A stretch of 64,000 nt of DNA from Candidatus Coprovivens sp. (GCA_051892935.1 JBJFGS010000025.1:80813-144812), one strand, 5' to 3'. Shown: positions 46,945 to 63,966, counted from the first letter of the stretch. A program made the numbers and translations. The notes: generated by a model not told the origin, from the sequence alone.

Positions 46945-46966
46945 AAACAAATTTCTATTGTTTTTA
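46938..46966. terminator. Bidirectional hairpin terminator
   Basis: acaatagaaa-caaa-tttctattgt flanked by A and T runs, between convergent genes. Confidence 0.65.
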
Positions 46967-48800
46967 TTTAGCTAATTTTTTAACACTATTTTTATTCTTT
47001 AATCCTAAAAACAATTTTTTACCAACAAATTTAACAGCTACAATAATATATGCACATGATAATAATAAATCAACACAGTTTAAGACTTTAGCAACCGGTA
47101 AATCAGGATAATTACTTAAATCAATTTCAATAGTACCAGCAACATACTCAGAATCCACCTTATCAATAAAATCATCACCAAATACAGAATAATCATATAA
47201 AAAACTTACATCGCAATGTTTCATATCATTACTAGCTCCCGTATCAGTACATACATTAGTAACTTGTTTCATTACAGGAGTATATCCATCTTCTAAAGAA
47301 GATTCAACTTCCACAATTTCATCTAAAGTAACATCATCATAACTCAATTTTTCATTAGTAGAATATTGTGGACCACCAGACTTCCATACATACCAATTAG
47401 TATCATTTAAATCAATATGTTCTCCATTCTTATTCAAAGAATCATTAATCAAACTTAAAGTATGACCATTTCCATAAATTCCTATTTTAGAAAAACCATT
47501 TCCCAAACATTTTTGTTCGAATACTTCCATTAATCTATAATAATCATTACCACTAAAATACTCTTCAAAATCTAAAAATACAGAAATATTCTCCCTATTA
47601 AGTTCAATTCCATTATTTTCCATTTCCTTATTTAAAACAGAAAAATATTCATCTAATCTTTCTTCATAGACAGATACTTTCATATCTGAAGAAACACAAA
47701 AATATAAACCTAAACTTATATCATTATTCACAACATTAATTATCTGATTAGTACATTCTTCTATATATGAACCACTATTATCAATATAATTACGAGGATC
47801 TCTAGCTACTTCAACTATAACATAATCAGAAGTTTCCTTAACTCTATTCCAATCTATATTAACTTGATAATTACTTATGTCAATTCCTCTTGCAACAGCA
47901 TAGCTATAAGTAACATTATTACTTACTGTATCAACTGTCTTATACAAATTAGGAATTAATATTACATCCCCAACATTTAACTCACTTTTGTCATTATTAT
48001 AAAAAATCAAATCATTTTCACTAAGACCAAATTGTAAAGCTAAAGAATGATAAGTATCTCCAAGTTGAACTCTATAAGAAGAACTATATACTAATTTGTG
48101 AGATGAATTTAAACCCTTTTTTAATATTATATTTGATAAATCTTCCTTAGCTGTAATACTACCTTGTAAATCTTTATGAATAGTATAAGTACCATCAAAT
48201 TTAATTTGACTACTATCTTGAACTAAAAAACAATCATAATTACTTAAGTCATATATGAAACGATTACAATCCACTAAATTTGAATCTTTACCATACATTC
48301 CTAAATACATATCACTTCTCTCAGCTTTACTAACAAAAGCTTCTATAATTTCTTTCCTTTGAGCATTATTAAGATTTTTATTTTCCATAACACCATCAAT
48401 ATTACAATAAACAGGTAAATCAATCTTATAATCTTTAACAATTGCTTGTAAATAATCAACATCTTTATATATTTGAGCTAAATCGTAAGCTTTAGTATCT
48501 AATATTAAACCGACACTAATATCTAATTCATCACACTTTTCTAGTTTAGCTTTTACAGCACTAATATTCATTAAAATCACTTGTACTAACATGTAACACA
48601 ACAAAATTATTAGTATGAACTACAGTATTATATTTTATCCCAATATTTTCATATCCAACAGTATTCTCATTCGATTTATCACTAGATTCTTATACTATAT
48701 TAGTTTTTATTAAAGCCCCAGTTTTTAAAAAAGCTGCTGGTGTCCCTAACAAAAATAGTATTTTTTCCAAAATGCTAAAAAACTTTTTACTCTTTTTCAT
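46964..48800 (-). pseudogene. LysM / GH25-like cell-wall hydrolase, 5' end disrupted
   Basis: Main ORF 46964-48604 has LysM (YRVQLGDTYHSLALQFGL...GDVILIP) and a GH25-like RGIDISNYQVNIDWNRV. The RBS-bearing ATG at 48800 encodes a signal anchor (MKKSKKFFSILEKILFLLGTPAAFL), hits TAA at 48690-48692, and lies in a different frame from the main ORF. Confidence 0.6.
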
Positions 48801-50016: not shown

Positions 50017-50928
50017 TCATTCTATTGATAGTTTAAATTTATTAAGTAAAGGTGTTAAAAAACTAATAACAAGTATTCCAAAATAAACACCAATATTAAA
50101 TCTAACTAAATTAATCATTACTGCAGCAACGATTCCTACTAAAATAGCATAAATAATCCTACCACTTCTAACAACCGGAGTTGCAGTCGATAAAGAAGCA
50201 ACAAAAACTGCAATAAACACAAATCCGCTATTAAAAGTATTAACTAGTAATTCATTAAATGTTACAACCTTACCAAAATATAAAAGTACACTCACTAAAG
50301 CATAGCTTACTAAACAAATAATAGGAATATCCTTCTTATAATAAGAATTAAATAATAATATGATATAACCAACTATGGCAAGCAAAGTTGATGTAACCCC
50401 TATCTCACCAACACCCATACCTAAGAATAATTTAGCTGGGTCACTTTCAACAACTTTCAAAGTAACTTCATGATAATTCATATTACTATATAAACTCATT
50501 AAACTTAAAACTAAAAACAATATACATTTATATAAAGCAACCCTATTAACACATACTTTTTGATCAAGAAACTTCATAACAACATCTAAAACTACTATTA
50601 AAGGAATAGTAATATATAGTTTATTAGCAGGTCCTGTAACCAAATAACACAATGTATTAATATAAGGAATAATTGAATTAATAATATTATTATTATCTTC
50701 ATCTTTTTTTATACATAAATAATAATATGTCTCAAATACATAACTAAGTATTACAATTATAATAGGAATAATTAAATATTGTAGTGATAAAAACAAACTT
50801 AACTCCCCAGACTTATAAACCATTAGCCCATTTTTATAAAAAGAAAATATTATAATAGGAAGTATACTAACTAAGTATAACATATTAATACCAAATATCT
50901 TATTTTTCTTTACAAACCCTTTTTTCAT
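50017..50928 (-). CDS. RnfD/NqrB-family membrane protein (divergent)
   Basis: Polytopic, 303 aa. GMGVGEIGVTSTLLAIVGYIILLF resembles the conserved RnfD G-x-x-GE-T-S-x-L-A-x-L-x-G segment. Confidence 0.6.
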   Translation of the reverse strand: MKKGFVKKNKIFGINMLYLVSILPIIIFSFYKNGLMVYKSGELSLFLSLQYLIIPIIIVILSYVFETYYYLCIKKDEDNNNIINSIIPYINTLCYLVTGPANKLYITIPLIVVLDVVMKFLDQKVCVNRVALYKCILFLVLSLMSLYSNMNYHEVTLKVVESDPAKLFLGMGVGEIGVTSTLLAIVGYIILLFNSYYKKDIPIICLVSYALVSVLLYFGKVVTFNELLVNTFNSGFVFIAVFVASLSTATPVVRSGRIIYAILVGIVAAVMINLVRFNIGVYFGILVISFLTPLLNKFKLSIE

Positions 50929-52070
50929 ACTTCTTCTTTCTCCCTACTAATTAAATTTCTATTTGCCGGACAAACAAAATTACATAATCCACACCTAATA
51001 CAAGTAGAATCTAATTTCTTATTTAGAGGATTAAGTCCCATAGGACAAACATCAACACACTTACCACATTTAATACACTTAGATGGAACAGAATCATCTT
51101 TTTCAAATATAAATACTGTTTTAACATTATCAGTAACAGTAAGAGCCTCTATATTAGAACACTTAACTTTTCTCATAAAATTATTTAAATAAATATCTTT
51201 ATTATCAATAATCGGATTGATTGTATCTAATATAACTTCTTTTAAATTAGCACCATACTTTGTATTAATAACATAAGCTTTTGTAGGATCATCTAACATA
51301 ACAGTAATATATCTTTGACTAACAGGTAACCTATCCTTTAAAGCGACAAATATTTTATATAAAGACAAAGTATCCAAAAATAATATTTCTTCTAATTTAT
51401 ATTCATTAAAATACTTTTTAGCAATAACACCATTAGTATTATAAGGAAAAACTTCATTAATTACTATAAAATTAATATTAGGGTAACTACTAATCAAAGT
51501 TTTAACAGCATAAACATTATTATCATCATATTTATTTAATAAAAGATAAGCATCTAAGTTAAATCTTCTAGATAATAAATTAATTGTTTCTAATAAGTTT
51601 TTAACATTATCTTGAAATAAGTAATTATTATTAAATTGATAAGGCTCAATATCCATTCCATTAACAACTAAAACCTTACTATTAGCTTTTAACTTATTTA
51701 CTATTAATCTATTTTCAAAAGAAATTCCTAATTCCTGACATACACTAATTATTTCATCTTTCTTAATATCTTCAATTATCGATACTGAAGCTTCGCTATT
51801 TAATGTTGAATCATTTTTATCATTAGTAATAACTAATGAATCTTGTTTTCTTTCAATAGTACCAGAAACAGTTGCATAAGTTTTAATACCAGTAGGAGAT
51901 TCAACTAACAATTGATTAATATAAACATAATCATTAGTATCAACATATATAGAATCTCCTTCTCTAAAAAAGACTTCAACAGTATTTGGAATAAAATATT
52001 CTTTCTTTTCAATATCTATTTTCTTTTCATCATTATTAAACTTATAAGTCAGTTTCAAATAAAACACCAC
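50925..52070 (-). CDS. RnfC-like protein with two 4Fe-4S ferredoxin motifs (divergent)
   Basis: VVNGMDIEPYQF resembles RnfC NGAECEPY. C-terminus reads CIKCGKCVDVCP ... CIRCGLCNFVCP. GTG start directly after the uvrC stop. Confidence 0.6.
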   Translation of the reverse strand: MVFYLKLTYKFNNDEKKIDIEKKEYFIPNTVEVFFREGDSIYVDTNDYVYINQLLVESPTGIKTYATVSGTIERKQDSLVITNDKNDSTLNSEASVSIIEDIKKDEIISVCQELGISFENRLIVNKLKANSKVLVVNGMDIEPYQFNNNYLFQDNVKNLLETINLLSRRFNLDAYLLLNKYDDNNVYAVKTLISSYPNINFIVINEVFPYNTNGVIAKKYFNEYKLEEILFLDTLSLYKIFVALKDRLPVSQRYITVMLDDPTKAYVINTKYGANLKEVILDTINPIIDNKDIYLNNFMRKVKCSNIEALTVTDNVKTVFIFEKDDSVPSKCIKCGKCVDVCPMGLNPLNKKLDSTCIRCGLCNFVCPANRNLISREKEEV

Positions 52071-52074
52071 ATTT

Positions 52075-53850
52075 CTATTCTTTATTATATTTACTATCCA
52101 AGTATTCTTTTAATTCGATAGCTACATTAGTTGGTAATATTTCCTCTACTTCTTGAAGTGTTGCTTCTCTCATTTTCGCTATACTACCAAATTTTTTTAT
52201 TAATTGTTTCTTTCTAACAGGCCCAATCCCTTCAATATCATCTAAAACACTACTTATACTGCCTTTACTTCTAAGTGTTCTATGATAATTTATAGTGAAT
52301 CTATGTACTTCATCTTGCATTCTTGTCAAATAATGAAATACGTTACTCATTCTATCTATATTAATAACACTTAAATCAGAAGAAATCAAGTCATTAGTTC
52401 TATGTTTATCATTCTTTTTTAAACCAACAACCATTATATTAAGATGTAAAAGTTCTAATATTTCTTTTGCAGCTCTAATTTGATTCTCTCCTCCATCTAC
52501 AATAATCAACTCTGGAAGACTTGTTTTATCAACTAAAGCTCTCTGATACCTTCTATATAATATTTCCTTCATCGTATTATAATCATCATTTACATCAACT
52601 GAAACTTTATATTTACGATATTCATTTTTAGCAGGCTTACCATCAATAAATACTACCATACCAGAAACAGCAAAACTACCAAAAAGATTTGAATTATCAA
52701 AAACATCAATTCTATAAATAGAATCCAAACCTAATATCTTAGCTAATTCATCATTAGCTTTACTAGTCATAACTTCATCTTTTTTTATTTCTTCAAATCT
52801 ATTATTCAAATTAAGCTTAGCATTATCAAAAGCCATCTCTAATAAATCTTTTTTAACACCTTTCTGCGGAATAATAAAGTTAGTATTAACTACAGATTTT
52901 AAATTTTCTATATTTAATGAATCAGGAATTAAAATTTCTTTTGGGATCTCATTTCTACTATAAAATTTAGCAATATAATACTCAATATCATCATTAATAT
53001 CTAAATTAATTGGAAATATTTCATTCTTATGATTTAATAACTTACCATTTCTAATAAATAATATTTCAATAGATAAATAACCATTATCAACAAAATAAGA
53101 AATAACATCTCTATTAACAAAATCATGCAATTCGACTTTTTGTTTATCTAAAACAATATCAATATACTCTAATTCTTTCTTTAAATCCAAAGCCATTTCA
53201 AAGTTTAAATTTTCACTATACTTAGTAATTTTATCCATAATCTTATTTCTAAGTATTTCATCATTACCTCTTAAAAAAGATAGTATTTCATTTTCCATAT
53301 CAACTATTTTATCTTTATCTATTTTATTACTACAATAACCTAAACATTCACCAATATGATAATATAAACATACTTCTTTAGGATTACCTTCGCACTTTTT
53401 TAGAGGATATAATCTATTAAGCAAGTTTACTATTCTTCTAGCAGCATAAGCATTAGGATATGGACCAAATAGTTTTTTTCCATCTTTCTTCCTAATATTT
53501 AGATATCTTGATACTTTAAGTTTAGGATATGGATCACTAATATACTCAATATAAGGATAACTCTTATCATCAGTAAGCATAATATTATACTTAGGATTAA
53601 ATTCCTTAATTAAATTAATTTCTATTATAAATGCTTCAAGTTCAGAAGAAGCTACAATATATTGAAAGTCCTCAATTAAACTAACCATTTTCGCCGTTTT
53701 ACCAGTATGAACCCTATTAAAATAAGAAGAAAGTCTTTTATTCAAATCTTTAGCTTTTCCAACATAAATAATATTCCCATTCTTATCTTTCATTTGATAA
53801 GAACCAGGTTTATGAGGTACTAAAGCTAATTTATCTTTAAATTTCATCAT
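52075..53850 (-). CDS. uvrC: Excinuclease ABC subunit C
   Basis: GIY-YIG PGSYQMKDKNGNIIYVGKAKDLNKRLSSYF; UvrBC-interacting region; C-terminal HhH IEGIGPVRKKQLIKKFGS. Confidence 0.95.
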   Translation of the reverse strand: MMKFKDKLALVPHKPGSYQMKDKNGNIIYVGKAKDLNKRLSSYFNRVHTGKTAKMVSLIEDFQYIVASSELEAFIIEINLIKEFNPKYNIMLTDDKSYPYIEYISDPYPKLKVSRYLNIRKKDGKKLFGPYPNAYAARRIVNLLNRLYPLKKCEGNPKEVCLYYHIGECLGYCSNKIDKDKIVDMENEILSFLRGNDEILRNKIMDKITKYSENLNFEMALDLKKELEYIDIVLDKQKVELHDFVNRDVISYFVDNGYLSIEILFIRNGKLLNHKNEIFPINLDINDDIEYYIAKFYSRNEIPKEILIPDSLNIENLKSVVNTNFIIPQKGVKKDLLEMAFDNAKLNLNNRFEEIKKDEVMTSKANDELAKILGLDSIYRIDVFDNSNLFGSFAVSGMVVFIDGKPAKNEYRKYKVSVDVNDDYNTMKEILYRRYQRALVDKTSLPELIIVDGGENQIRAAKEILELLHLNIMVVGLKKNDKHRTNDLISSDLSVINIDRMSNVFHYLTRMQDEVHRFTINYHRTLRSKGSISSVLDDIEGIGPVRKKQLIKKFGSIAKMREATLQEVEEILPTNVAIELKEYLDSKYNKE

Positions 53851-54310
53851 CTACCTCCTTATTTAACAAATAATTATAAAGAGCTAAACACCCTTCATTA
53901 ATTTCATTATAAGCAGTATCAAAATCTCCACTATACCACGGATCATCTATATCTTTATTACTACCAGTAAATTCCAATAATAAATGAATTTTATTATCAA
54001 CATCAGGTCCAACTATTTGTATAACATCTCTTTTATTTCTCTGTTCCATTACAATAATATAATTATATAAATTATAATCTTCTCTTTTTATTTGAGTAGC
54101 CTTATGACTTTCACAAGTAACTCCCTCACTAACAAGTTTTTGTCTTGCTTGAGGATACATTTCATGACCAAGTTCTTCTATACTAGTAGCTCTTGATGCA
54201 CAAGTAAACATATAACGTTTACTATTCTTATATATAAGATCTTTAAAAATCATTTCAGCCATAGGACTTCTACAAATATTTCCATAGCATACAAACAGAA
54301 TGTTATACAT
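53837..54310 (-). CDS. Low-molecular-weight protein-tyrosine phosphatase
   Basis: ILFVCYGNICRSPMAE (C-X5-R-S P-loop) and the DPWY Asp loop; 157 aa. Confidence 0.9.
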   Translation of the reverse strand: MYNILFVCYGNICRSPMAEMIFKDLIYKNSKRYMFTCASRATSIEELGHEMYPQARQKLVSEGVTCESHKATQIKREDYNLYNYIIVMEQRNKRDVIQIVGPDVDNKIHLLLEFTGSNKDIDDPWYSGDFDTAYNEINEGCLALYNYLLNKEVDDEI

Positions 54311-54361
54311 ACTATCACCTTACAATATTATAACATAAAGAATAATTATTATTTCATATAT

Positions 54362-54577
54362 CTATCTTTTTTTGGCTTTTTTCTTTTCATCAGAAGTGGT
54401 ATAAGAAGTTACGTTACTATGAACCATTTCTGCAAAAAGAGAGTTTGATATTACTTCATTCATATCTTCACCATCCAAAAGCGAATCAACAAATTGTAAT
54501 TCATCATTTTCATCATACCTTTTAACAATTTTCAATCCTTCTTTTAAAGAAATCAACTTTTCTTTTTCATTACTCAT
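54362..54577 (-). CDS. Small protein (71 aa) coupled to the giant ORF
   Basis: Its ATG overlaps the giant ORF's TGA (ATGA). Acidic body with a KKKAKKR tail. Confidence 0.6.
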   Translation of the reverse strand: MSNEKEKLISLKEGLKIVKRYDENDELQFVDSLLDGEDMNEVISNSLFAEMVHSNVTSYTTSDEKKKAKKR

Positions 54578-57500
54578 AATGTAACTCCTCCACTCTTTTT
54601 AAGATTCTCTAATTCTAAAACATACTCTTCCATCTTAATAATAGCATCATTTCTTCTTTTCAAAATCAACTCTAATACTTGATCAGCTTTATCTTTACCT
54701 AAAGAAACGGCATATTTTCTAAATAAATCCTTATAATCATCATCACTTAAAAGTTTAACTTTATTTATTGTATCAGTAATAACAGATAAATCAAGATCTA
54801 TTTCTCCGTTCCTATACCTAGTAAATAATATTTGATAAATAGGAATACGATGATTACCATTAGGAGTAAAAGAATAATCTGCATTCAATGTTCTATCATC
54901 ACTTATAAACCTAAACGATTGTTCTTTGTCAATTCCTCTCAAATTATTTGAACTATCTATAATAAAATTTCCAACATAACAATCAAAATTACATAGTAAA
55001 AAGTCAATAACATATTCTCTTAGCAAAGCAGAAGAATAACAATAATCTAACTCTCCACCTTTATTAACCCAATCCTTAAGTACATCAGAATTATCCTCAC
55101 TTATCTCCACTAATTCTTGTTTAGAAAATCTCAATTTACCCCCAATACTCTCAACTCTTACTGAAGTACCAGGAGATAAAAATTCTTGTAATTTAGAAGC
55201 CGCTTCTTGAATATCAGCTCTAAAAGGTTGTAAAGCATAGTTATTTTTATCTACTGCTGGTTTTAGTAAGAAACTATCATCATCAATATCATATCTATAC
55301 ATAATTCCAGACTCTCCCAAATTAGCAGTTTCAAGAGCTACAATTTCTTCTTTAGACATTCCTCTTAAAACAGTTAAAGTTTTTCTAAAAAGACCAATAC
55401 GAGTCAATTCTTTTTTACAGTCAGGTAAATCAACTATTATTTGACAAACAATGCTTTCCATCTCGTATAAAGATTTACACAAATAATCAAAAGATATTTC
55501 ACTATTACGATACTTATCATTCAAAATAGTTAAACAATAATCTACTTTTTCTTTTATACTAACATTTGGATTATTCTCTTGTATCCCATCAAAGAATATA
55601 GAATACATCAACGAATAATTAGGACTAATTTTAAAATCAGCTTTAGCTTTCTTTAAATCTTCCACTTTCTTAGTATCATAAGCATAAACATCAAATTTAA
55701 TAATTGGAACATCAACTCCAAGAAAATCACTAAAATACTTAGCAGCCCTAATTGTAGCCTCATTTGGTACATCACCAACACAAGCCAAAGCACAAGGAAG
55801 CATACCTTCTCTAAAACCAGCTACTTCATTATAAGAACAATGCTTATAACAACTACACTGATTAAGAGCATTCAAATTTGTAAAAGCATTAATATTAGCA
55901 GTTGGTTCAATCTTATAACCACCATGCTCAACAAATAAATCTCTACCATTCATAAAAAGCATAAAACTCTTAGGTAAACTATTAAACAAATAAACAACAC
56001 CATTATTATCTCTATTATTTATAAACCAAAATCCTTTATCGGAAATACTAGATGTAGATAATGTCGAAGCTCCTTCTAACTTAGTCCATAAAGAAGGATC
56101 ATTAATTAACATCTCCTTAAAACCAGACATATTAGTATCATAAGAATAAATCCTATGGACTAAAAAATTAAACTTTTCAGAATTCATTTCAATAATAGTA
56201 ACACCATAAGGATTATTAGGATCACCCTTATCAATACGTTTACTTTTCAAATCCTCAATATTAGTAAGTCTTCCATTAAATTGATAATTATGTAACAATC
56301 TAATCTTAGCAATAATATTTCTCACTTCATCACAATAATCTAAAACTCCTGCATTGTCATTTATAAGTTTAGTCATTAAATCTTTTAATTCATTGATATT
56401 TTGAGATTCTATAATTCTACTCATTAATGTAATAATAGCTACATCTTTCTTATTGTAAAAACATTCTTTAAATATTTGATTAGCTCTTTCCAAACCATAA
56501 CATTCTATAATATCTTCTCGTAAAGTTTTTAGATTTAAATAATTATTTAATTGGAAATTATTAAAATCTTTTGCTAAAGAAGCGATATCAGCATATCCAA
56601 ATAAAGTAGCTAAAACATTCTTAATTTCAGCAATATTATTCGAATTTAATTTAATCATCCAAAAATCTTGTGTTTTCTTTTCATATTGTTTAAGTTCATC
56701 ATATGTTTTAATATCATACAAATTATTGCCTATAATAACTTTTCTAAGATTAGAAATATCAATTTCACTTAATTCATAATTTGAATTACAAATATCAATT
56801 ATTAACTCTTTATACTTATCAAAATTCCTAAAAGCATAATGAACTCTTTTATCATCATTATCAAACAAATTATAACGACAAACAATATCATAATAACTAC
56901 TAAGTAAATTAGCATTATTAGCTTTTATTTCTTTAGATATCACTGAAACAGCAGGTGTATTATATTTAATAACATCAAGTACAAATTCAAGACCAAATAA
57001 CGGATAAATATATTTAACAACATCATAATTAAAAACAGGATTCTTTTCTAAAGTATTTAATTTACCATTAGATTTTAAAATAAATAAAGCATTCTTAAAA
57101 ACAATTTGTAAATCACTATCAAATATTTCAAGATCAATAAATGGTAAAACTGTTACAATCTTTCTGAAAGTAAAACCATTTTCATTAGTCAAATCACTAT
57201 CGTAAGAATTAATAGCATTTGCAAAAACACTTCTAATAACATTATCATTTTTATCTATTAATCTAAAATCCTTCAAATTACTAAGTAAAAAATCAGCAAC
57301 GAAAAAACAATTATTCTTATTATTAATATCAAAATTTGAAAAATGAATAATCTTCAAAACTTTAGAAACCGATAATAAATGTCTATCAATAGTCGAAAAA
57401 TCATCTATATAAGCAAAAGTACGTTCATTCAAAAATTCCAGAGGAAGTTGAAATAAAATTGAAGGAGCAGTTTTTAAAGCAGCCACAACCATTTCCTCAT

Positions 57501-60500
57501 CTATTTCAATTAAAGAAGAAATTCTAGTTAAATAATAACCATTAATAGACAAAGCCTTTAAAACTAATTCCCTATATCTTTCCATAGTATTAGGAAATAG
57601 AAATATTAAATCAGAATTATAATCAAGAACAGTAAAACATAAATCAAAATCTTTCTTTAAAAAATCAGGTAAATAATTATAAACACAACCATTTTTATAT
57701 TCAACCAGCTTTAAAGCAGTCTCTTTATCATTTATCAAATTAGGTATAAAAGTAAATACAATAGGATATTCTAACAAATGATCTTTTGCATACCTAACAA
57801 TAATATCTAAAGAATGATTCGCATATGCAAAAGTACTTTCATCAAGTTTCATAGCATAATCAAGAATATCAATATCATCTTTAAAAGTATCACTTAAGTA
57901 AAAATAAACGCTTGAAGCGGAATCCTTTTTCATTAGTTTAAATATAATTTCTTTATTATTTAAAATAGAAGGAACATACTTATATAAAGAAGGATAATCA
58001 TCTATAATATTTGTAACACTATTAATAATATCTTGATCATTACAATCAACATATTTAATATAAAACAAAGGATCATCTAAAAAATACTTCTTAGCCATAT
58101 CATATTTTTTTTGAATAAATATTTCCAAATCAGTAAAATTATTAGCAAACCACTCTACTACATATTTTTTATCAGAACAAGAATTAAGTATATCATCTAT
58201 AATCGTTAAAGATTCTTTTTCTTTAGGTAATTCATTCAACCTCAATAAAACAGTAAAGTTTTCTTTACTTGAATAGTCAAAATTATAATACAACGAAGCA
58301 TCAATTCCAAAAGAATTAAGAAATTCCTTAAAAGGTCCATCAATATACCAATTATTTCTAAAAAAAATTGTAAAATCATAAATAAAATCATATTTATTCT
58401 CACTATAAATTTCAGAAAGTATATCCTTAAGTAATAAATATAAAGAATCATCAACTTCATTAATTAAATCTTTTCCTATCTGTAATAAAGATTGTATTCC
58501 TAGATTTTTAAGTATTTCCCTATCAACCTCAACGCCATTTTTTAAAGCAACTGAAACAGTATGTGAAGAAGATTTAAAAGAAAAATTATACCCACTCTTA
58601 AAAGCTAATAAAACATAATCATCATCTACATAGCCATGATAATAATCTAAAACACTAGGATAAAAAGAAACAATTTCCTTTACCACTTCAGAATTTAAAT
58701 ATCGAGCATCAATATAACTAAGTATTAAAGGATTTTCCTTTATAAGTTCAACAACTGAATTAGAACTCATATCATAATAAAATAACTTACTACATAATTC
58801 AGGTTGTTCTCTAGCAATAATCTTTAATAAATTAATATCTCTTCTCTGTTCAACATTTAACAATTTTATAATATCAGGATTTTTTCTAACAAACGAAGCC
58901 AAAGAATGATAATTATTTACAATATCAGAAAAAAAGATAATATATCTAGAGTCAGAATCAATTCTACTTCGTAAATACATTAACTCATCATCTGAAAAAC
59001 TGATTTTCTTAATAAAAGAATTAAAATATTTATTAGTAAGAATCTGTTCTTCAGGAAAATAGCCACCTAATAAAGCTTTTTTCAAAACATCTTCTTCAAT
59101 TCTGTCATAATAATATGATATAAAATCATAAAATCCCATTATAACCATTTTTCTTATAAGAAAAATTTTAGTATCAGTATTTATAGAATAAGAATTAATA
59201 ATTTCACGTATCTTATCAACACTTAAATATTTTAACAATTTAGTAAGTAAAACTTTATTATTTATAGTACTAGAAGACAAATCAACATAATTAAAAAGAA
59301 CATATTCATTTTCATCAATTTCATCAAGAAGTACTTTATCACTAACACCAATAATCTTTTGCATTTTTACAATACTATTCTTATTAAAACCAGTTCTATA
59401 CATTTTTAAAATAATACTAGAACTATCATAAATATAAAGACTAGAATTACTCTCAGATAATTTTACAAATAGATTAACAAGTTCTTGTTCATATTCAATT
59501 TTAATAAATCTACTAATAACTAAAGCATTCATAACAGGATGCTTTTTAAACATTTCAAAATTATATCCTGATTCAAATAAAAAATCGATATCTTCATCAG
59601 AAAAATTATTAATTACATCAAGTATTTCAAATCTATTATTTAAAATGTATTTTCTCATCAATAATGAATTAAAAATCGCCGAAGAACATAAATCCTTTGA
59701 ATCAGGTAAATAACCATTCAATAAACTATAATATAAATCAACTGCTTCCTTACAATCATTCCCATAAAAATGCAAATACTTAATTCCTCTATCATCACCT
59801 TTTTTTAAAAGAAATACAACTGAATCAAGAGATAAATCTGTAAAATCATTAATATATGGAAGAATATCATCAAAAGAAATACCGCTTAAAATAGCTTTTT
59901 CAATAACAGAACGAGTAGGATTATTCTTTAATAAATCCATCAAATAACTAGAATCATACTCAATAAATTTTTCTTTTAATATTGGAATATTCTGAACAAC
60001 TAATGGCAAAGAAATATATTTTTCATATGAAATATCTTTTAAACCTATTTTTTCTAAATCAAAATCACTTAAATACAAATTTTCAGTAGCTAATACATCG
60101 TAATGGCCTTCATTAACAAACTTATATATAATATCTTTAGACAAATCACATTTACCATATTTAGAAATAGCTTCTTCATACATACTATATGTAATATAAT
60201 CCAAATAACTATTAACTAAATTTTTATCGTTTGAATAAAGTAAAGGCAAATACATTCCCTTTTGTACAAACGCCTCAATGAAAACATTTTTATTAGTATT
60301 ACGAGAAAGATTAATAGCAAAATCATCCACTGTAAGACCATTATCAATAAGTTCTAAAGCAACAGGTAAAGAAATAGAAAAGCTACTATAAGAACGATAT
60401 TTATCCCAATCACGAGAAACAACACAATATAAAAAATTAATTTCCTCAGAATTCCTATAATCATCTTTTAACTGATATATACCACTTTTAACAAGTTCTA

Positions 60501-61569
60501 AAACATAATTAAAACAATTAATATCAGTCAATACCGAAGTCAAACCACCTATTAATGAATAATCATTATTTACTACAAAATATCTAGCAAGAGGAAAAGA
60601 ATCTAAAATATTAGTAAAAGAGTTAATTCTTTCTAAAGAAATATTATTATTTTGAATAAAGTTTATAACATCCTCATTAACAGCTTCTTTAGAAGCATAC
60701 ATTAAAGCATCAATTTTACCATCCTGTAAAAGATTTAATAATAAAGGAGAACTTTTTTTATAAGACCCATCATATAAAGAATAATCATAAAAAGAAAAGT
60801 CAGAATAATTAACTAAATCAGCAGAAGGATTAGAAGCTAAAACTAAAGCTTTACTACCTCCTATATCAATAAATCTTTTTACAATATTTTCATCATTCAA
60901 AATTGAAATATCATGATCATTCATATACATAGTAATTATATATTCAAAAAAAGCCTTAAAATCAAAATCACATTTAGATAATTCAATTAATAAATTAGAA
61001 AAATCAGCTTTAAAATTATTAGAATATCTAAAATATTTTCCCAAATATTTATAATTGTTATTGGAAATCATTAAAGCTGCAAGCTTAGGACTAATACTAT
61101 AAGAATGTTCAACTAACAAATCGACTTTATCAGGATAAAGAATATATATATCATATTGAAAACTACCTAAAATCTCAAATTTTTTCAAAATATCATCTAT
61201 AGAAACACCATTATTCAAATAATAATTTAAGTCATTTAAATCAAAAATAGCTCCATGAACATCAGTATATTCCTTATCACGATAAAAGTAATCTAATAAA
61301 GAATAATAAAACTCATCCGAAATGAAAAGTTTAGAATAAAATAAGTTATCAAGCCCATTATCAAAATCTAATTCACTAATAAATTCTTCATCACCAATAT
61401 ATTTATCAACAAATAAGAAATAATCATTATGAATTTTATCTCTAAGAGTATTCAATATATAATCAATATCTCTTTCTAAATAATCAGTATCAATATTATA
61501 TTTTTTAAATATTTCAAGCAAGGAATCTTCCTCTAACAATTTCAAAAATTTAATAACATCTTCGTGCAT
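54574..61569 (-). CDS. Giant repeat protein (2331 aa) with C-terminal kinase-like domain
   Basis: Uninterrupted 6996-nt ORF. TGcTATAAT extended -10 and RBS aggtg upstream. No signal peptide or TM seen. Helical repeats, including DUF4116-like ~26-aa units. C-terminal K/E/D-x4-N/D landmarks. Confidence 0.85.
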   Translation of the reverse strand: MHEDVIKFLKLLEEDSLLEIFKKYNIDTDYLERDIDYILNTLRDKIHNDYFLFVDKYIGDEEFISELDFDNGLDNLFYSKLFISDEFYYSLLDYFYRDKEYTDVHGAIFDLNDLNYYLNNGVSIDDILKKFEILGSFQYDIYILYPDKVDLLVEHSYSISPKLAALMISNNNYKYLGKYFRYSNNFKADFSNLLIELSKCDFDFKAFFEYIITMYMNDHDISILNDENIVKRFIDIGGSKALVLASNPSADLVNYSDFSFYDYSLYDGSYKKSSPLLLNLLQDGKIDALMYASKEAVNEDVINFIQNNNISLERINSFTNILDSFPLARYFVVNNDYSLIGGLTSVLTDINCFNYVLELVKSGIYQLKDDYRNSEEINFLYCVVSRDWDKYRSYSSFSISLPVALELIDNGLTVDDFAINLSRNTNKNVFIEAFVQKGMYLPLLYSNDKNLVNSYLDYITYSMYEEAISKYGKCDLSKDIIYKFVNEGHYDVLATENLYLSDFDLEKIGLKDISYEKYISLPLVVQNIPILKEKFIEYDSSYLMDLLKNNPTRSVIEKAILSGISFDDILPYINDFTDLSLDSVVFLLKKGDDRGIKYLHFYGNDCKEAVDLYYSLLNGYLPDSKDLCSSAIFNSLLMRKYILNNRFEILDVINNFSDEDIDFLFESGYNFEMFKKHPVMNALVISRFIKIEYEQELVNLFVKLSESNSSLYIYDSSSIILKMYRTGFNKNSIVKMQKIIGVSDKVLLDEIDENEYVLFNYVDLSSSTINNKVLLTKLLKYLSVDKIREIINSYSINTDTKIFLIRKMVIMGFYDFISYYYDRIEEDVLKKALLGGYFPEEQILTNKYFNSFIKKISFSDDELMYLRSRIDSDSRYIIFFSDIVNNYHSLASFVRKNPDIIKLLNVEQRRDINLLKIIAREQPELCSKLFYYDMSSNSVVELIKENPLILSYIDARYLNSEVVKEIVSFYPSVLDYYHGYVDDDYVLLAFKSGYNFSFKSSSHTVSVALKNGVEVDREILKNLGIQSLLQIGKDLINEVDDSLYLLLKDILSEIYSENKYDFIYDFTIFFRNNWYIDGPFKEFLNSFGIDASLYYNFDYSSKENFTVLLRLNELPKEKESLTIIDDILNSCSDKKYVVEWFANNFTDLEIFIQKKYDMAKKYFLDDPLFYIKYVDCNDQDIINSVTNIIDDYPSLYKYVPSILNNKEIIFKLMKKDSASSVYFYLSDTFKDDIDILDYAMKLDESTFAYANHSLDIIVRYAKDHLLEYPIVFTFIPNLINDKETALKLVEYKNGCVYNYLPDFLKKDFDLCFTVLDYNSDLIFLFPNTMERYRELVLKALSINGYYLTRISSLIEIDEEMVVAALKTAPSILFQLPLEFLNERTFAYIDDFSTIDRHLLSVSKVLKIIHFSNFDINNKNNCFFVADFLLSNLKDFRLIDKNDNVIRSVFANAINSYDSDLTNENGFTFRKIVTVLPFIDLEIFDSDLQIVFKNALFILKSNGKLNTLEKNPVFNYDVVKYIYPLFGLEFVLDVIKYNTPAVSVISKEIKANNANLLSSYYDIVCRYNLFDNDDKRVHYAFRNFDKYKELIIDICNSNYELSEIDISNLRKVIIGNNLYDIKTYDELKQYEKKTQDFWMIKLNSNNIAEIKNVLATLFGYADIASLAKDFNNFQLNNYLNLKTLREDIIECYGLERANQIFKECFYNKKDVAIITLMSRIIESQNINELKDLMTKLINDNAGVLDYCDEVRNIIAKIRLLHNYQFNGRLTNIEDLKSKRIDKGDPNNPYGVTIIEMNSEKFNFLVHRIYSYDTNMSGFKEMLINDPSLWTKLEGASTLSTSSISDKGFWFINNRDNNGVVYLFNSLPKSFMLFMNGRDLFVEHGGYKIEPTANINAFTNLNALNQCSCYKHCSYNEVAGFREGMLPCALACVGDVPNEATIRAAKYFSDFLGVDVPIIKFDVYAYDTKKVEDLKKAKADFKISPNYSLMYSIFFDGIQENNPNVSIKEKVDYCLTILNDKYRNSEISFDYLCKSLYEMESIVCQIIVDLPDCKKELTRIGLFRKTLTVLRGMSKEEIVALETANLGESGIMYRYDIDDDSFLLKPAVDKNNYALQPFRADIQEAASKLQEFLSPGTSVRVESIGGKLRFSKQELVEISEDNSDVLKDWVNKGGELDYCYSSALLREYVIDFLLCNFDCYVGNFIIDSSNNLRGIDKEQSFRFISDDRTLNADYSFTPNGNHRIPIYQILFTRYRNGEIDLDLSVITDTINKVKLLSDDDYKDLFRKYAVSLGKDKADQVLELILKRRNDAIIKMEEYVLELENLKKSGGVTL

Positions 61570-61657: not shown

Positions 61658-62011
61658 ATGAAACTTTTAAAAGAATCAACAATCGAAATAAAAAAATCCA
61701 AATTCATTGGATTATGTTACGAAATAACATCAGTTGAAGAAGCAAAAGAAATAATAGAAAATTTAAAAAGAGAACATAAAAAAGCACGTCATATCCCATA
61801 CGCCTATAAAATCAATAATACTGCTAAAAAGACAGATGATAAAGAACCAACAAATACTGCAGGTTTACCAATATATAATATTTTAGAAAGAAAGAATCTT
61901 AATAATCATTTAATAGCTGTAATAAGATATTTCGGTGGAATAAAACTAGGTGCCGGAGGATTATTAAGAGCATATAGTGAAGCTGCAAACGAAGCAACTA
62001 AAAATTTATAA
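61658..62011 (+). CDS. YigZ/IMPACT-family N-terminal domain protein
   Basis: IKKSKFIG...RHIPYAY...RYFGGIKLGAGGLLRAYSEA. Only the ~115-aa UPF0029 domain is present. Confidence 0.8.
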   Translation: MKLLKESTIEIKKSKFIGLCYEITSVEEAKEIIENLKREHKKARHIPYAYKINNTAKKTDDKEPTNTAGLPIYNILERKNLNNHLIAVIRYFGGIKLGAGGLLRAYSEAANEATKNL

Positions 62012-62748: not shown

Positions 62749-63966
62749 ATGGCAAAAACTATAAGAATCGCTGGAAAAAATTTTAACGCAAATTTCTTTT
62801 ATACTTACATGAGAAAAAACTTTGGTGAATCATTTGCACACAGTAGTCTTTCATTTGAAAAAGAATTCGAAGAAAGTAAAAAACTAGCTCAAAGGCTAAG
62901 TGAATTCATGTCTCAAAGTAATTGTGCTTATGCTACTAAATTAGAAAATGGTTCTAAAGAAGATTTAGAATTATTAAAAACAAGATACAGTGAAATAGCT
63001 ACAGTATTAGAAAAAATATATTCTGTACCAAAAGAAAGATATATCCTAGACGAAGATGAAGAAGATTATTCACTATGTATCGATGATTTCATACCATATT
63101 TTAAAGGAGCTGTAAGACCTTATCGTAATAAATACGAAATAGAACAAGCTCGCCTAGCAGGCAAATTAACTGATGCTCCATACGAAAATGAATCTCTAAT
63201 CGATAAAGTAAAAGAATTAGCAGACCTAGTAAGTTTAAAAGTTGCTGCTGATAAAAAAGCATATAATTTAAAAAAAGGAAATAACGAAGCATATGCTTAC
63301 GCTTTAGGTTTAAAATCAATAGGTATTCCGGAAATAATTGAAATAAATGCAAAAGTAAATAAAAATTCAGGAATTCATACTGGATTCAAAACAACAGACA
63401 ACGACATAATAAACGCTCCATTCAAGACATGTCCTAAAGAATTAGTTCCAATAAAAATGCAAGAGCTACTTCATAATTATAATTATGTTTGGGCGCAAGG
63501 CATCCCTCCATTTACTGAAGGTGTCGATGACGAAAAACAAAAAATTGCTCATTTAAGAGCTGTTTGTGATAGAGAAGCAAAATTCCATATTGCATTCGAA
63601 AGAATACATCCATTTGAAGATGGTAATGGTCGTACAGGAAGAATAATTCTAAACGCTCATTTAGTCGCAAACGAACTAGCTCCTGTTTTAATTACTCCAG
63701 AAATGCGTGAATTCTATATAGAATGTATAGATACAGACAACTATCAAGCTTTAAGTCAGCATATAATGTCAATATCAAGTGTATGCTTAACAGAAATGGT
63801 TTCACAATATCGTAGAACAAAAGGTATAGATCCAGATGAATTAAGAATTTCCGATGTTCAACAAAAAGGTCATCATACAGCAGTCAAAGTATACATACCT
63901 GAAACACAACAAGAAAAAACTGCTCAAGGCGACGAGGATGTTAAAATATATCGAATAAAAAGATAA
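62749..63966 (+). CDS. Fic-domain protein
   Basis: Canonical Fic motif HPFEDGNGRTGR (H-x-F-x-[DE]-G-N-G-R-x-x-R) near the C-terminus of a 405-aa ORF. The N-terminal ~280 aa were not recognised. Confidence 0.9.
   Translation: MAKTIRIAGKNFNANFFYTYMRKNFGESFAHSSLSFEKEFEESKKLAQRLSEFMSQSNCAYATKLENGSKEDLELLKTRYSEIATVLEKIYSVPKERYILDEDEEDYSLCIDDFIPYFKGAVRPYRNKYEIEQARLAGKLTDAPYENESLIDKVKELADLVSLKVAADKKAYNLKKGNNEAYAYALGLKSIGIPEIIEINAKVNKNSGIHTGFKTTDNDIINAPFKTCPKELVPIKMQELLHNYNYVWAQGIPPFTEGVDDEKQKIAHLRAVCDREAKFHIAFERIHPFEDGNGRTGRIILNAHLVANELAPVLITPEMREFYIECIDTDNYQALSQHIMSISSVCLTEMVSQYRRTKGIDPDELRISDVQQKGHHTAVKVYIPETQQEKTAQGDEDVKIYRIKR

Follow-up and report, generated by a model that had tools for sequence, protein, structure and literature searches.

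A giant ART-like and kinase-like protein with a coupled small partner upstream of uvrC in Candidatus Coprovivens: a candidate chromosomal counterpart of polyvalent proteins

Kinases and ADP-ribosyltransferases (ARTs) are the main protein-modifying modules of the so-called polyvalent proteins, which, according to one proposal, are injected into the host so as to modify its proteins (Iyer, Burroughs, Anand, de Souza, Aravind 2017, PMC5512222). In these proteins unrelated protein-modifying domains are joined in one huge polypeptide, and the same is true of the protein analysed here, which is encoded by a 64,000-nt stretch (about 25% GC) of Candidatus Coprovivens sp. (GCA_051892935.1, JBJFGS010000025.1:80813-144812); the whole stretch is hereafter referred to as the window, and all coordinates are counted from its start. 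The protein, which we call the giant, combines an ART-like domain, a kinase-like domain and a repeat scaffold. Its gene and the small open reading frame (ORF) that follows it are a conserved, translationally coupled pair and constitute a two-gene accessory cassette inserted between an Impact_N gene and an older unit formed by uvrC and a gene for a low-molecular-weight protein tyrosine phosphatase (LMW-PTP, hereafter PTP). We propose, with middling confidence, that the giant is a dual protein-modifying enzyme of polyvalent type that is encoded on the chromosome and serves in genetic conflict, and that the small protein is its regulator or antidote.

The resemblance to polyvalent proteins is accompanied by clear differences. 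Polyvalent proteins are encoded by phages or conjugative elements and linked to delivery by the virion or by a type IV secretion system (T4SS), which is not the case for the giant: neither MuF/VG15 nor any other domain associated with virions or a T4SS is present in it, and chromosomal housekeeping genes flank it. Moreover, the giant has additions of its own, namely solenoid repeats of the DUF4116 type and the coupling to a small gene.

Domain architecture of the giant protein and its phage relatives

The giant ORF and the regions recognised in its product are the following.

54574..61569, minus strand: giant ORF, 2331 aa, 272 kDa, pI 4.8 (ORF map and sequence)
58888..61569, minus strand: N-terminal region, residues 1-894, no recognisable domain, the fastest-evolving part
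57430..58887, minus strand: DUF4116-type repeats, residues ~895-1380, 6-7 units of ~40-50 aa, predicted alpha-solenoid
56260..57084, minus strand: conserved helical region, residues 1496-1770, always ahead of the ART-like domain in the wider family
55675..56247, minus strand: predicted ART-fold domain, residues ~1775-1965
55333..55674, minus strand: helical linker, residues 1966-2079, with long helices at model residues 196-306
54577..55332, minus strand: atypical protein-kinase-like domain, residues 2080-2331

With the base composition of the window, 2331 stop-free codons would arise by chance with p ~4e-97, so that the giant ORF is not a chance feature. Under the name 'DUF4116 domain-containing protein [Candidatus Coprovivens sp.]', NCBI lists a protein identical to its product, from a metagenome-assembled genome (MAG) of this uncultured bacterium of the Bacilli. 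Nine homologues are full-length (2317-2342 aa) and 46-57% identical to the giant, and a tenth, of 2251 aa, aligns over 48% of the query. For the giant and the small protein together, DUF4116 was the only match in Pfam, NCBIfam, PADLOC and PHROGs; in the giant Pfam finds it in 4 stretches (E 7.9e-20), and an iterated profile places unit starts at residues 895, 939, 1188, 1206, 1282 and 1333. A published model of DUF4116 is an alpha-solenoid (PMC8078820).

The C-terminal third (residues 1500-2331) is by far the most conserved portion. An exhaustive profile search performed with it matched 856 representative proteins and divided it into two modules, one at profile positions 2-580, found in ~55 representatives, and one at positions 585-830, widespread and frequently duplicated in tandem. 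Positions 2-275 of the A2 profile, that is the helical region, were matched jointly with the ART-like core in the ~55 family representatives. A first AlphaFold2 (AF2) run, fed with 9 close orthologues only, left the conserved cores unmodelled (predicted local distance difference test, pLDDT, 61) and was discarded; in the first AF2 model residues 1496-1770 are helical, with pLDDT 70-90. The model of residues 1766-2331, obtained from a 95-sequence alignment, reached pLDDT 92.6 and a predicted template modelling score of 0.88.

In this model the alpha/beta domain at residues ~1775-1965 exhibits the split beta-sheet of the ART fold, and the residues of the three-motif ART active site (strand-1 R/H, strand-2 S-T-S or Y, strand-5 E/D/Q) are in place. 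All of 19 divergent paralogues (33-65% identity) have H1805, S1838, S1840, S1843, D1877, H1882, E1915 and R1920, and T1836 is nearly invariant among them, giving the motif string 'FLxH ... GASTLSTSS ... D..EHGG ... YNEVAG.R'; the domain is the most conserved element of the family. The catalytic residues of the ART CteC are R65, S97, D134 and E220 (PMC10810742), and the spacing H1805-33-S1838-39-D1877-38-E1915 parallels R65-32-S97-37-D134 ... E220. Because of the invariant residues and of this CteC-like spacing, we read the domain as an ART fold with a hybrid H / S-T-x-S-x-S / D / N-E site. It differs from CteC and the cholera-toxin-like (R-S-E) mono-ARTs in that motif I has His, not Arg, and motif III N-E, not E/Q-x-E; it also lacks the ubiquitin-binding insertion of CteC-type ARTs and has no HMMER-detectable similarity to them (Pfam, PDB). 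At E<=1 none of 27 members gave a Pfam match for the ART-like domain, and no PDB sequence matched it; when run against PDB sequences, the last 808 aa of the giant, the kinase profile and the ART-like profile alike returned matches at chance level only. As judged from these searches, the domain family is new at the sequence level. Several paralogues of ~1000-1700 aa combine intact ART-like motifs with a degenerate catalytic loop in the kinase domain, which suggests that the ART-like activity is probably the core function of the family.

The C-terminal domain is predicted to adopt a bilobal atypical protein-kinase fold, with CtkA as top PDB match in Foldseek; on the basis of the model it is a kinase domain of the PI4K2A/CtkA/HipA type. 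An ATP-anchoring Lys, a catalytic Asp/Asn loop and a metal-binding Asp are all present: K2103, Q2151, D2196 and D2214 are shared by all of 26 diverse domains and N2201 by nearly all, the key motifs being D2196-x4-N2201 and D2214 ('GIDKEQSF'). At the family level, however, the sequence belongs to none of the known atypical kinases (PI4K type II alpha, Helicobacter pylori CtkA, HipA, CotH, Legionella MavQ, Fam20, actin-fragmin kinase), from which it also differs in having Y/F in place of the catalytic-loop His and a C-terminal helical subdomain of its own. The domain itself has no match to the Pfam kinase families PI3_PI4_kinase, HipA_C and Pkinase, its homologues give sub-threshold Pfam matches only (16-18 bits), and a word-indexed search with the kinase profile retrieved 25 proteins, all unannotated. 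The initial annotation of this DNA, based on the sequence alone, had placed the genes at coordinates that all hold (giant ORF, 71-aa ORF, PTP, overlap with uvrC, ATGA junction), and its kinase-like domain is confirmed by the fold of the C-terminus; the ART-like domain had been overlooked.

The kinase-like domain is also the one that links the giant to mobile elements. Phage_Mu_F head-morphogenesis domains are fused to two of its homologues (P0057 and P0078), another (P0165) adjoins genes for a VirB4-type ATPase and a T4SS pilin in a conjugative locus, and tblastn detected the domain in eight mycobacteriophage records. The top match in the viral structure library BFVD was gp16 of Mycobacterium phage Onyinye, named 'ADP-ribosyltransferase' (E 3.4e-10, 435 aligned columns). 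Our A5 kinase profile scored 100 bits on this protein, which has a kinase-like domain at 199-453 and ADPrib_exo_Tox at 1158-1332, and 135 bits on gp54 of prophiFSQJ01-1, in which a VG15 minor-capsid domain is combined with a kinase-like domain (459-710) and ADPrib_exo_Tox (984-1165). Since gp54 and gp16 carry both domains, the kinase-like/ART pairing recurs in capsid-associated polyvalent proteins. In the giant the same kinase-like family is combined with an ART, but the domain order is reversed (ART-like, then kinase), and the ART-like domain is of another family, which matches neither ADPrib_exo_Tox nor the HYD2 clade in sequence; the score of this domain against the phage ADPrib_exo_Tox domain was not significant. 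In the phage records (L091 3320-7342 for Onyinye, L092 2402-5914 for prophiFSQJ01-1) the annotation names are 'ADP-ribosyltransferase' and 'minor capsid and ADP-ribosyltransferase fusion', and the kinase-like domain is unannotated. A T4SS locus (L085 1-10472, GCA_965355435.1) encodes a 481-aa, mainly kinase-like protein directly after a VirB4-type ATPase, as well as a 2523-aa surface-type protein, with a Fic/Phd-type pair just downstream.

A conserved Gln in the last N-lobe strand has been reported for the kinases of polyvalent proteins (PMC5512222) and matches Q2151 of the giant. The kinase clade described there lacks the C-terminal subdomain and comes from Verrucomicrobia, Chlamydia and Bacteroidetes (PMC5512222); on account of these taxa and of the missing subdomain, the identity of the giant kinase with that clade is not established.

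The giant and the small ORF as an accessory cassette

The genes and signals next to the giant gene are organized as follows.

54362..54577, minus strand: small partner ORF, 71 aa, pI 5.1, basic C-terminal tail
54327..54335, minus strand: extended -10-like element TGTTATAAT, within the 51-nt spacer (read directly from the sequence)
54315-54321, minus strand: ribosome-binding site AAGGTGA, 3' of the extended -10 and before the PTP gene
53837..54310, minus strand: PTP, 157 aa, Pfam LMWPc; neighbouring context, outside the cassette
52075..53850, minus strand: uvrC, Pfam GIY-YIG and UvrC RNase H domains; context
61658..62011, plus strand: Impact_N/UPF0029 gene (Pfam), divergent from the giant gene, upstream border of the insertion slot

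The TGA of the giant and the ATG of the small ORF overlap as ATGA (4 nt), and the same 4-nt overlap was found at every junction whose coordinates were read. The small ORF lies directly after the giant gene in 10/10 full-length loci read (at least 8 genomes). Its family comprises 46 clusters of 49-93 aa, 42 of which fall at 68-76 aa, and every match looked up sits in this locus; the 93-aa outlier (P0225) is a code-4 read-through of the deletion remnant described below.

To place the cassette among its neighbours, the uvrC loci of 80 related genomes were scored for each gene, and a neighbour-joining uvrC tree was built from 83 related genomes. Seventy of the sampled genomes have neither the PTP nor the giant, and in most of them (roughly 60) Impact_N is directly beside uvrC. 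The tree shows a nested order, in which PTP-uvrC comes first (L011, L010 and L009, basal, PTP only), then the paralogues (L088), and then the giant with the small gene, the giant being later lost in L006 and L005. PTP-uvrC without the giant is thus found in five genomes (L005, L006, L009, L010, L011), in addition to the deletion allele of L096/L097; altogether this narrow clade has seen at least three losses of the giant, with the neighbouring genes retained. The slot between Impact_N and PTP may hold other cargo: in L009 (7640-9451) a 603-aa membrane protein with a signal-like N-terminus, a transmembrane segment and a Q/P/V-rich tail, in L005 (72-745) an unrelated minus-strand gene of ~190 aa, LOG/TIGR00730-like as judged by eye, and in L088 an array of three paralogues directly upstream of LMWPc-uvrC. 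That the L005 slot retains pieces of the giant gene was considered and rejected, the slot being occupied by that different gene.

The deletion allele is shared by two independent metagenome samples (L096 1577-2128 and L097 1-620). In it residue ~62 of the giant is joined to residue ~2276, with the loss of ~6.6 kb, so that the first ~62 and the last ~60 codons remain; the small ORF is frameshifted in an A-run, whereas the terminator, the -10 element and the PTP start are unaltered, and the 157-aa PTP ORF is complete in L096. No other observation speaks as clearly as this allele for a joint function of the small gene and the giant, and for a PTP that can do without both. The small acidic protein is probably a stoichiometric regulator or antidote of a C-terminal enzymatic domain, as its position and its fate in the deletion allele suggest.

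Where it is present, the giant gene is an accessory gene that is maintained under purifying selection. The ORF is intact in 10/10 full-length loci (at least 8 genomes; 2259-2342 aa where the frame was checked), with N-terminal identities of 26-57%. For the close pair L001/L004 (97% amino acid identity, 1346 codons) the ratio of nonsynonymous to synonymous substitution rates (dN/dS) is 0.11; in deeper comparisons, in which dS is saturated, it is 0.16-0.20 for the ART-like and kinase domains and ~0.54 for the N-terminal ~900 residues. Accordingly fast is the divergence of the N-terminus, 30-47% identical between genomes whose uvrC is 81-92% identical to that of the window. Tandem arrays of 2-5 paralogues (~900-1700 aa) occur in L088 (1-11169), L090 (3350-16661, following spo0A) and L089 (5229-12592); they keep the invariant ART-like motifs, and their kinase catalytic loop is often degenerate. 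Dispensability, fast evolution and tandem arrays are the usual marks of conflict genes.

These data bear on several claims of the initial annotation. The coupling of the giant to the 71-aa ORF is borne out, as the two are adjacent in all ten loci and deletion of the giant goes along with a frameshift in the small ORF, and so is the selection on an intact giant gene that it had supposed. The check that it had proposed, on the co-occurrence of giant, small ORF and PTP across genomes, came out positive for the first two and negative for the PTP. It had also held that a neighbouring gene for a LysM hydrolase was decaying, and for this there is some support: in the LysM-domain gene (ORF 46964-48604; N-terminal region 48615-48800, minus strand) an in-frame stop lies at 48690-48692 relative to the intact orthologue of L001, the gene being either a pseudogene, or restarted with loss of the N-terminus, or affected by a MAG error.

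The neighbourhood is variable also on the other side. Two genes from the giant, a Fic gene of 405 aa (62749-63966, plus strand) matches the PADLOC models PDC-S04 (E 6.5e-31) and SoFic (4e-13). The Fic slot, between thioredoxin and nitroreductase, houses in L003 (2055-4862) and L087 (1003-3615) an unrelated protein of 870-935 aa and is therefore a second variable slot beside the giant; neither Pfam nor PADLOC identifies these proteins, which were rejected as members of the family. Downstream of uvrC (50017-52070, minus strand) the window contains only an RnfC-like gene (Fer4 and a weak Complex1_51K match) and an RnfD/NqrB-like gene, both kept in L001 and L003, with no further rnf genes evident among the ORFs examined.

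Possible roles of the cassette

The giant most likely has a role in genetic conflict, which we infer from its patchy presence, the deletion allele, the other cargo of the slot, the paralogue arrays, the fast N-terminus and the nearby Fic gene. As a chromosomal counterpart of the polyvalent proteins of phages and plasmids, it would modify protein targets with NAD+ (ADP-ribosylation) and ATP (phosphorylation), while its long and variable helical/solenoid part would serve as a scaffold binding the target or the trigger. The small acidic protein would hold one of the C-terminal enzymatic domains in check, and the action might consist in defence against phages or mobile elements, or be toxin-like; the PTP would not be the dedicated partner of the giant.

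In DarTG and CmdTAC an ART effector is associated with a small cognate partner, and DSR2 joins a large helical sensor to an NAD+-using effector. The cassette resembles these systems in its NAD+-type domain with a coupled small gene, its large variable helical region and its patchy distribution, but it has no homology to any PADLOC model and neither a macrodomain nor a chaperone partner. It is conceivable, although unlikely, that the H/STS/D/E domain represents a new active ART clade that, together with a phage-type kinase, a hypervariable solenoid sensor and an antidote, makes up a new system of gut Bacillota against phages or mobile elements.

Some observations weigh against the proposed role in conflict. 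The motif I His and the motif II STS (with N-E) form a hybrid of two classical ART classes, so that the use of NAD+ by the ART-like domain is not certain. The catalytic loop of PI3/4K reads 'DRH', and that of most relatives of the giant kinase D-S/T-H; in the giant orthologues it is D-C-Y/F (NFDCYVGNF). The giant, the small ORF and the paralogues have no match in PADLOC (PADLOC-DB 2.0), nor the giant in PHROGs; the evidence on the small protein consists of position, co-conservation and co-decay; and the genomes compared are all MAGs or metagenome contigs. Finally, in this clade the giant was never found apart from the PTP, which leaves room for a one-way dependence of the former on the latter.

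A different idea is that the giant is an endogenous regulatory enzyme or scaffold that has no part in conflict and modifies the cell's own proteins, for instance under stress or DNA damage given the proximity to uvrC, with the small protein as a subunit. This would fit the genomic context, since the flanking genes are housekeeping ones (Impact_N, nitroreductase, thioredoxin, CvpA, uvrC, rnf-like genes, queA) and none is a mobile-element gene, for which reason a prophage or integrative and conjugative element was rejected, and no MuF, portal, terminase or T4SS genes were found near the giant gene in the flanking loci read; the position beside uvrC is stable across species, and the catalytic domains are under purifying selection. 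However, a gene that is missing from ~70 related genomes and has been lost repeatedly while its neighbours stayed is dispensable, and the very fast N-terminus, the tandem paralogue arrays and the occurrence of the kinase domain elsewhere in phage capsid fusions and in a conjugative locus do not speak for such a function, which we regard as rather improbable.

The layout of the cassette, with a small coupled gene directly after an enzymatic C-terminus, is the classical one of toxins and their immunity genes. The giant might then be exported or delivered to other cells in the manner of polymorphic toxins, the C-terminal enzymatic domains being the toxin and the 71-aa protein the immunity factor; ART and kinase domains are common as toxin modules, loss of the giant is followed by decay of the small ORF, and paralogue arrays exist. 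Nevertheless, the Pfam and hydropathy scans revealed in the giant no signal peptide, no predicted transmembrane segment (highest 19-residue hydropathy window 1.36) and no export or known trafficking domain (LXG, RHS, PT-HINT etc.), there are no secretion-system genes near the locus, and the pattern of conservation is reversed, with variation greatest at the N-terminus and least at the C-terminus. The probability of this explanation appears low.

The initial annotation had seen in the giant kinase and the adjacent PTP a dedicated, co-transcribed pair for signalling or modification. The phosphatase itself is a genuine one (Pfam LMWPc 99 bits against a cut-off of 23.2, E 3.7e-28), with the CX5RS P-loop CYGNICRS at residues 8-15 and the DP general-acid loop at 123-124, and the arrangement recalls Wzb-Wzc and CapC-CapB, in which an LMW-PTP gene likewise lies beside a kinase-domain gene on the same strand. 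The giant, small and PTP genes share one strand, the spacer between the small ORF and the PTP is just 51 nt long and, in the window, terminator-free, and every copy of the giant or of its paralogues at this locus in the clade is directly upstream of the PTP, including the L088 array. Yet the kinase of the giant is not of the P-loop, bacterial tyrosine kinase (BY-kinase) type, since both the Walker A motif and the Tyr cluster are missing, and a BY-kinase partner for the PTP was rejected on this ground; the L088 paralogue adjoining the PTP has a degenerate kinase loop. The PTP overlaps uvrC by 14 nt, not the cassette, and PTP-uvrC is basal on the uvrC tree, whereas paralogues of other Bacillota (L089, L090) reside at loci without any PTP.

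The regulatory signals point in the same direction. TGnTATAAT followed by AAGGTGA is found directly upstream of the PTP in the window, L001, L005 and L096, whatever precedes it, only TATTATAGT being kept in L003, and L001 and L096 have a terminator (hairpin and T-run) after the small ORF; TGTTATAAT is probably the promoter of PTP-uvrC itself. We relied on this conservation across species because a promoter/terminator scan of the window (87 sites versus 92.8 expected) was uninformative at 25% GC. Being older than the giant, persisting without it and having a conserved -10, the phosphatase belongs with uvrC, and the kinase-phosphatase module is not supported. Of the findings that the initial annotation had itself named as telling against the module, part was made, namely PTP-uvrC without the giant and a giant disrupted in a close relative. 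The pair is largely refuted by comparative genomics, and we consider it very improbable.

Least probable of all, and close to dismissal, is that the giant is a functionless, decaying relic of the polyvalent protein of an integrated phage or conjugative element: the shared domains and the deletion alleles would agree with it, but the ORF is intact in every full-length locus in spite of a 25% GC DNA rich in stop codons, the close pair shows strong constraint (dN/dS as above), and phage and T4SS genes are missing from the vicinity.

Implications for gut Bacillota and their phages

On the narrower point of gene organization, the analysis corrects a tempting but wrong inference, that is, that a kinase gene beside a phosphatase gene denotes a signalling pair. 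It also provides natural deletion alleles that are traceable in gut metagenomes.

If the proposal of a polyvalent-type enzyme is correct, uncultured gut Bacillota harbor an unannotated family of ART-like enzymes, with ~55 representative clusters, some of them in tandem arrays, and a widespread atypical kinase domain (856 representative matches) links cellular giants, capsid-packaged phage proteins and conjugative elements. Should the new ART clade and defence system also prove true, host and phage would share the same kinase and ART pairing, the version of the phage being packaged in the capsid. The giant and its relatives would in that case be candidates for new NAD+-/ATP-dependent protein modification in the conflict between phages and their hosts.

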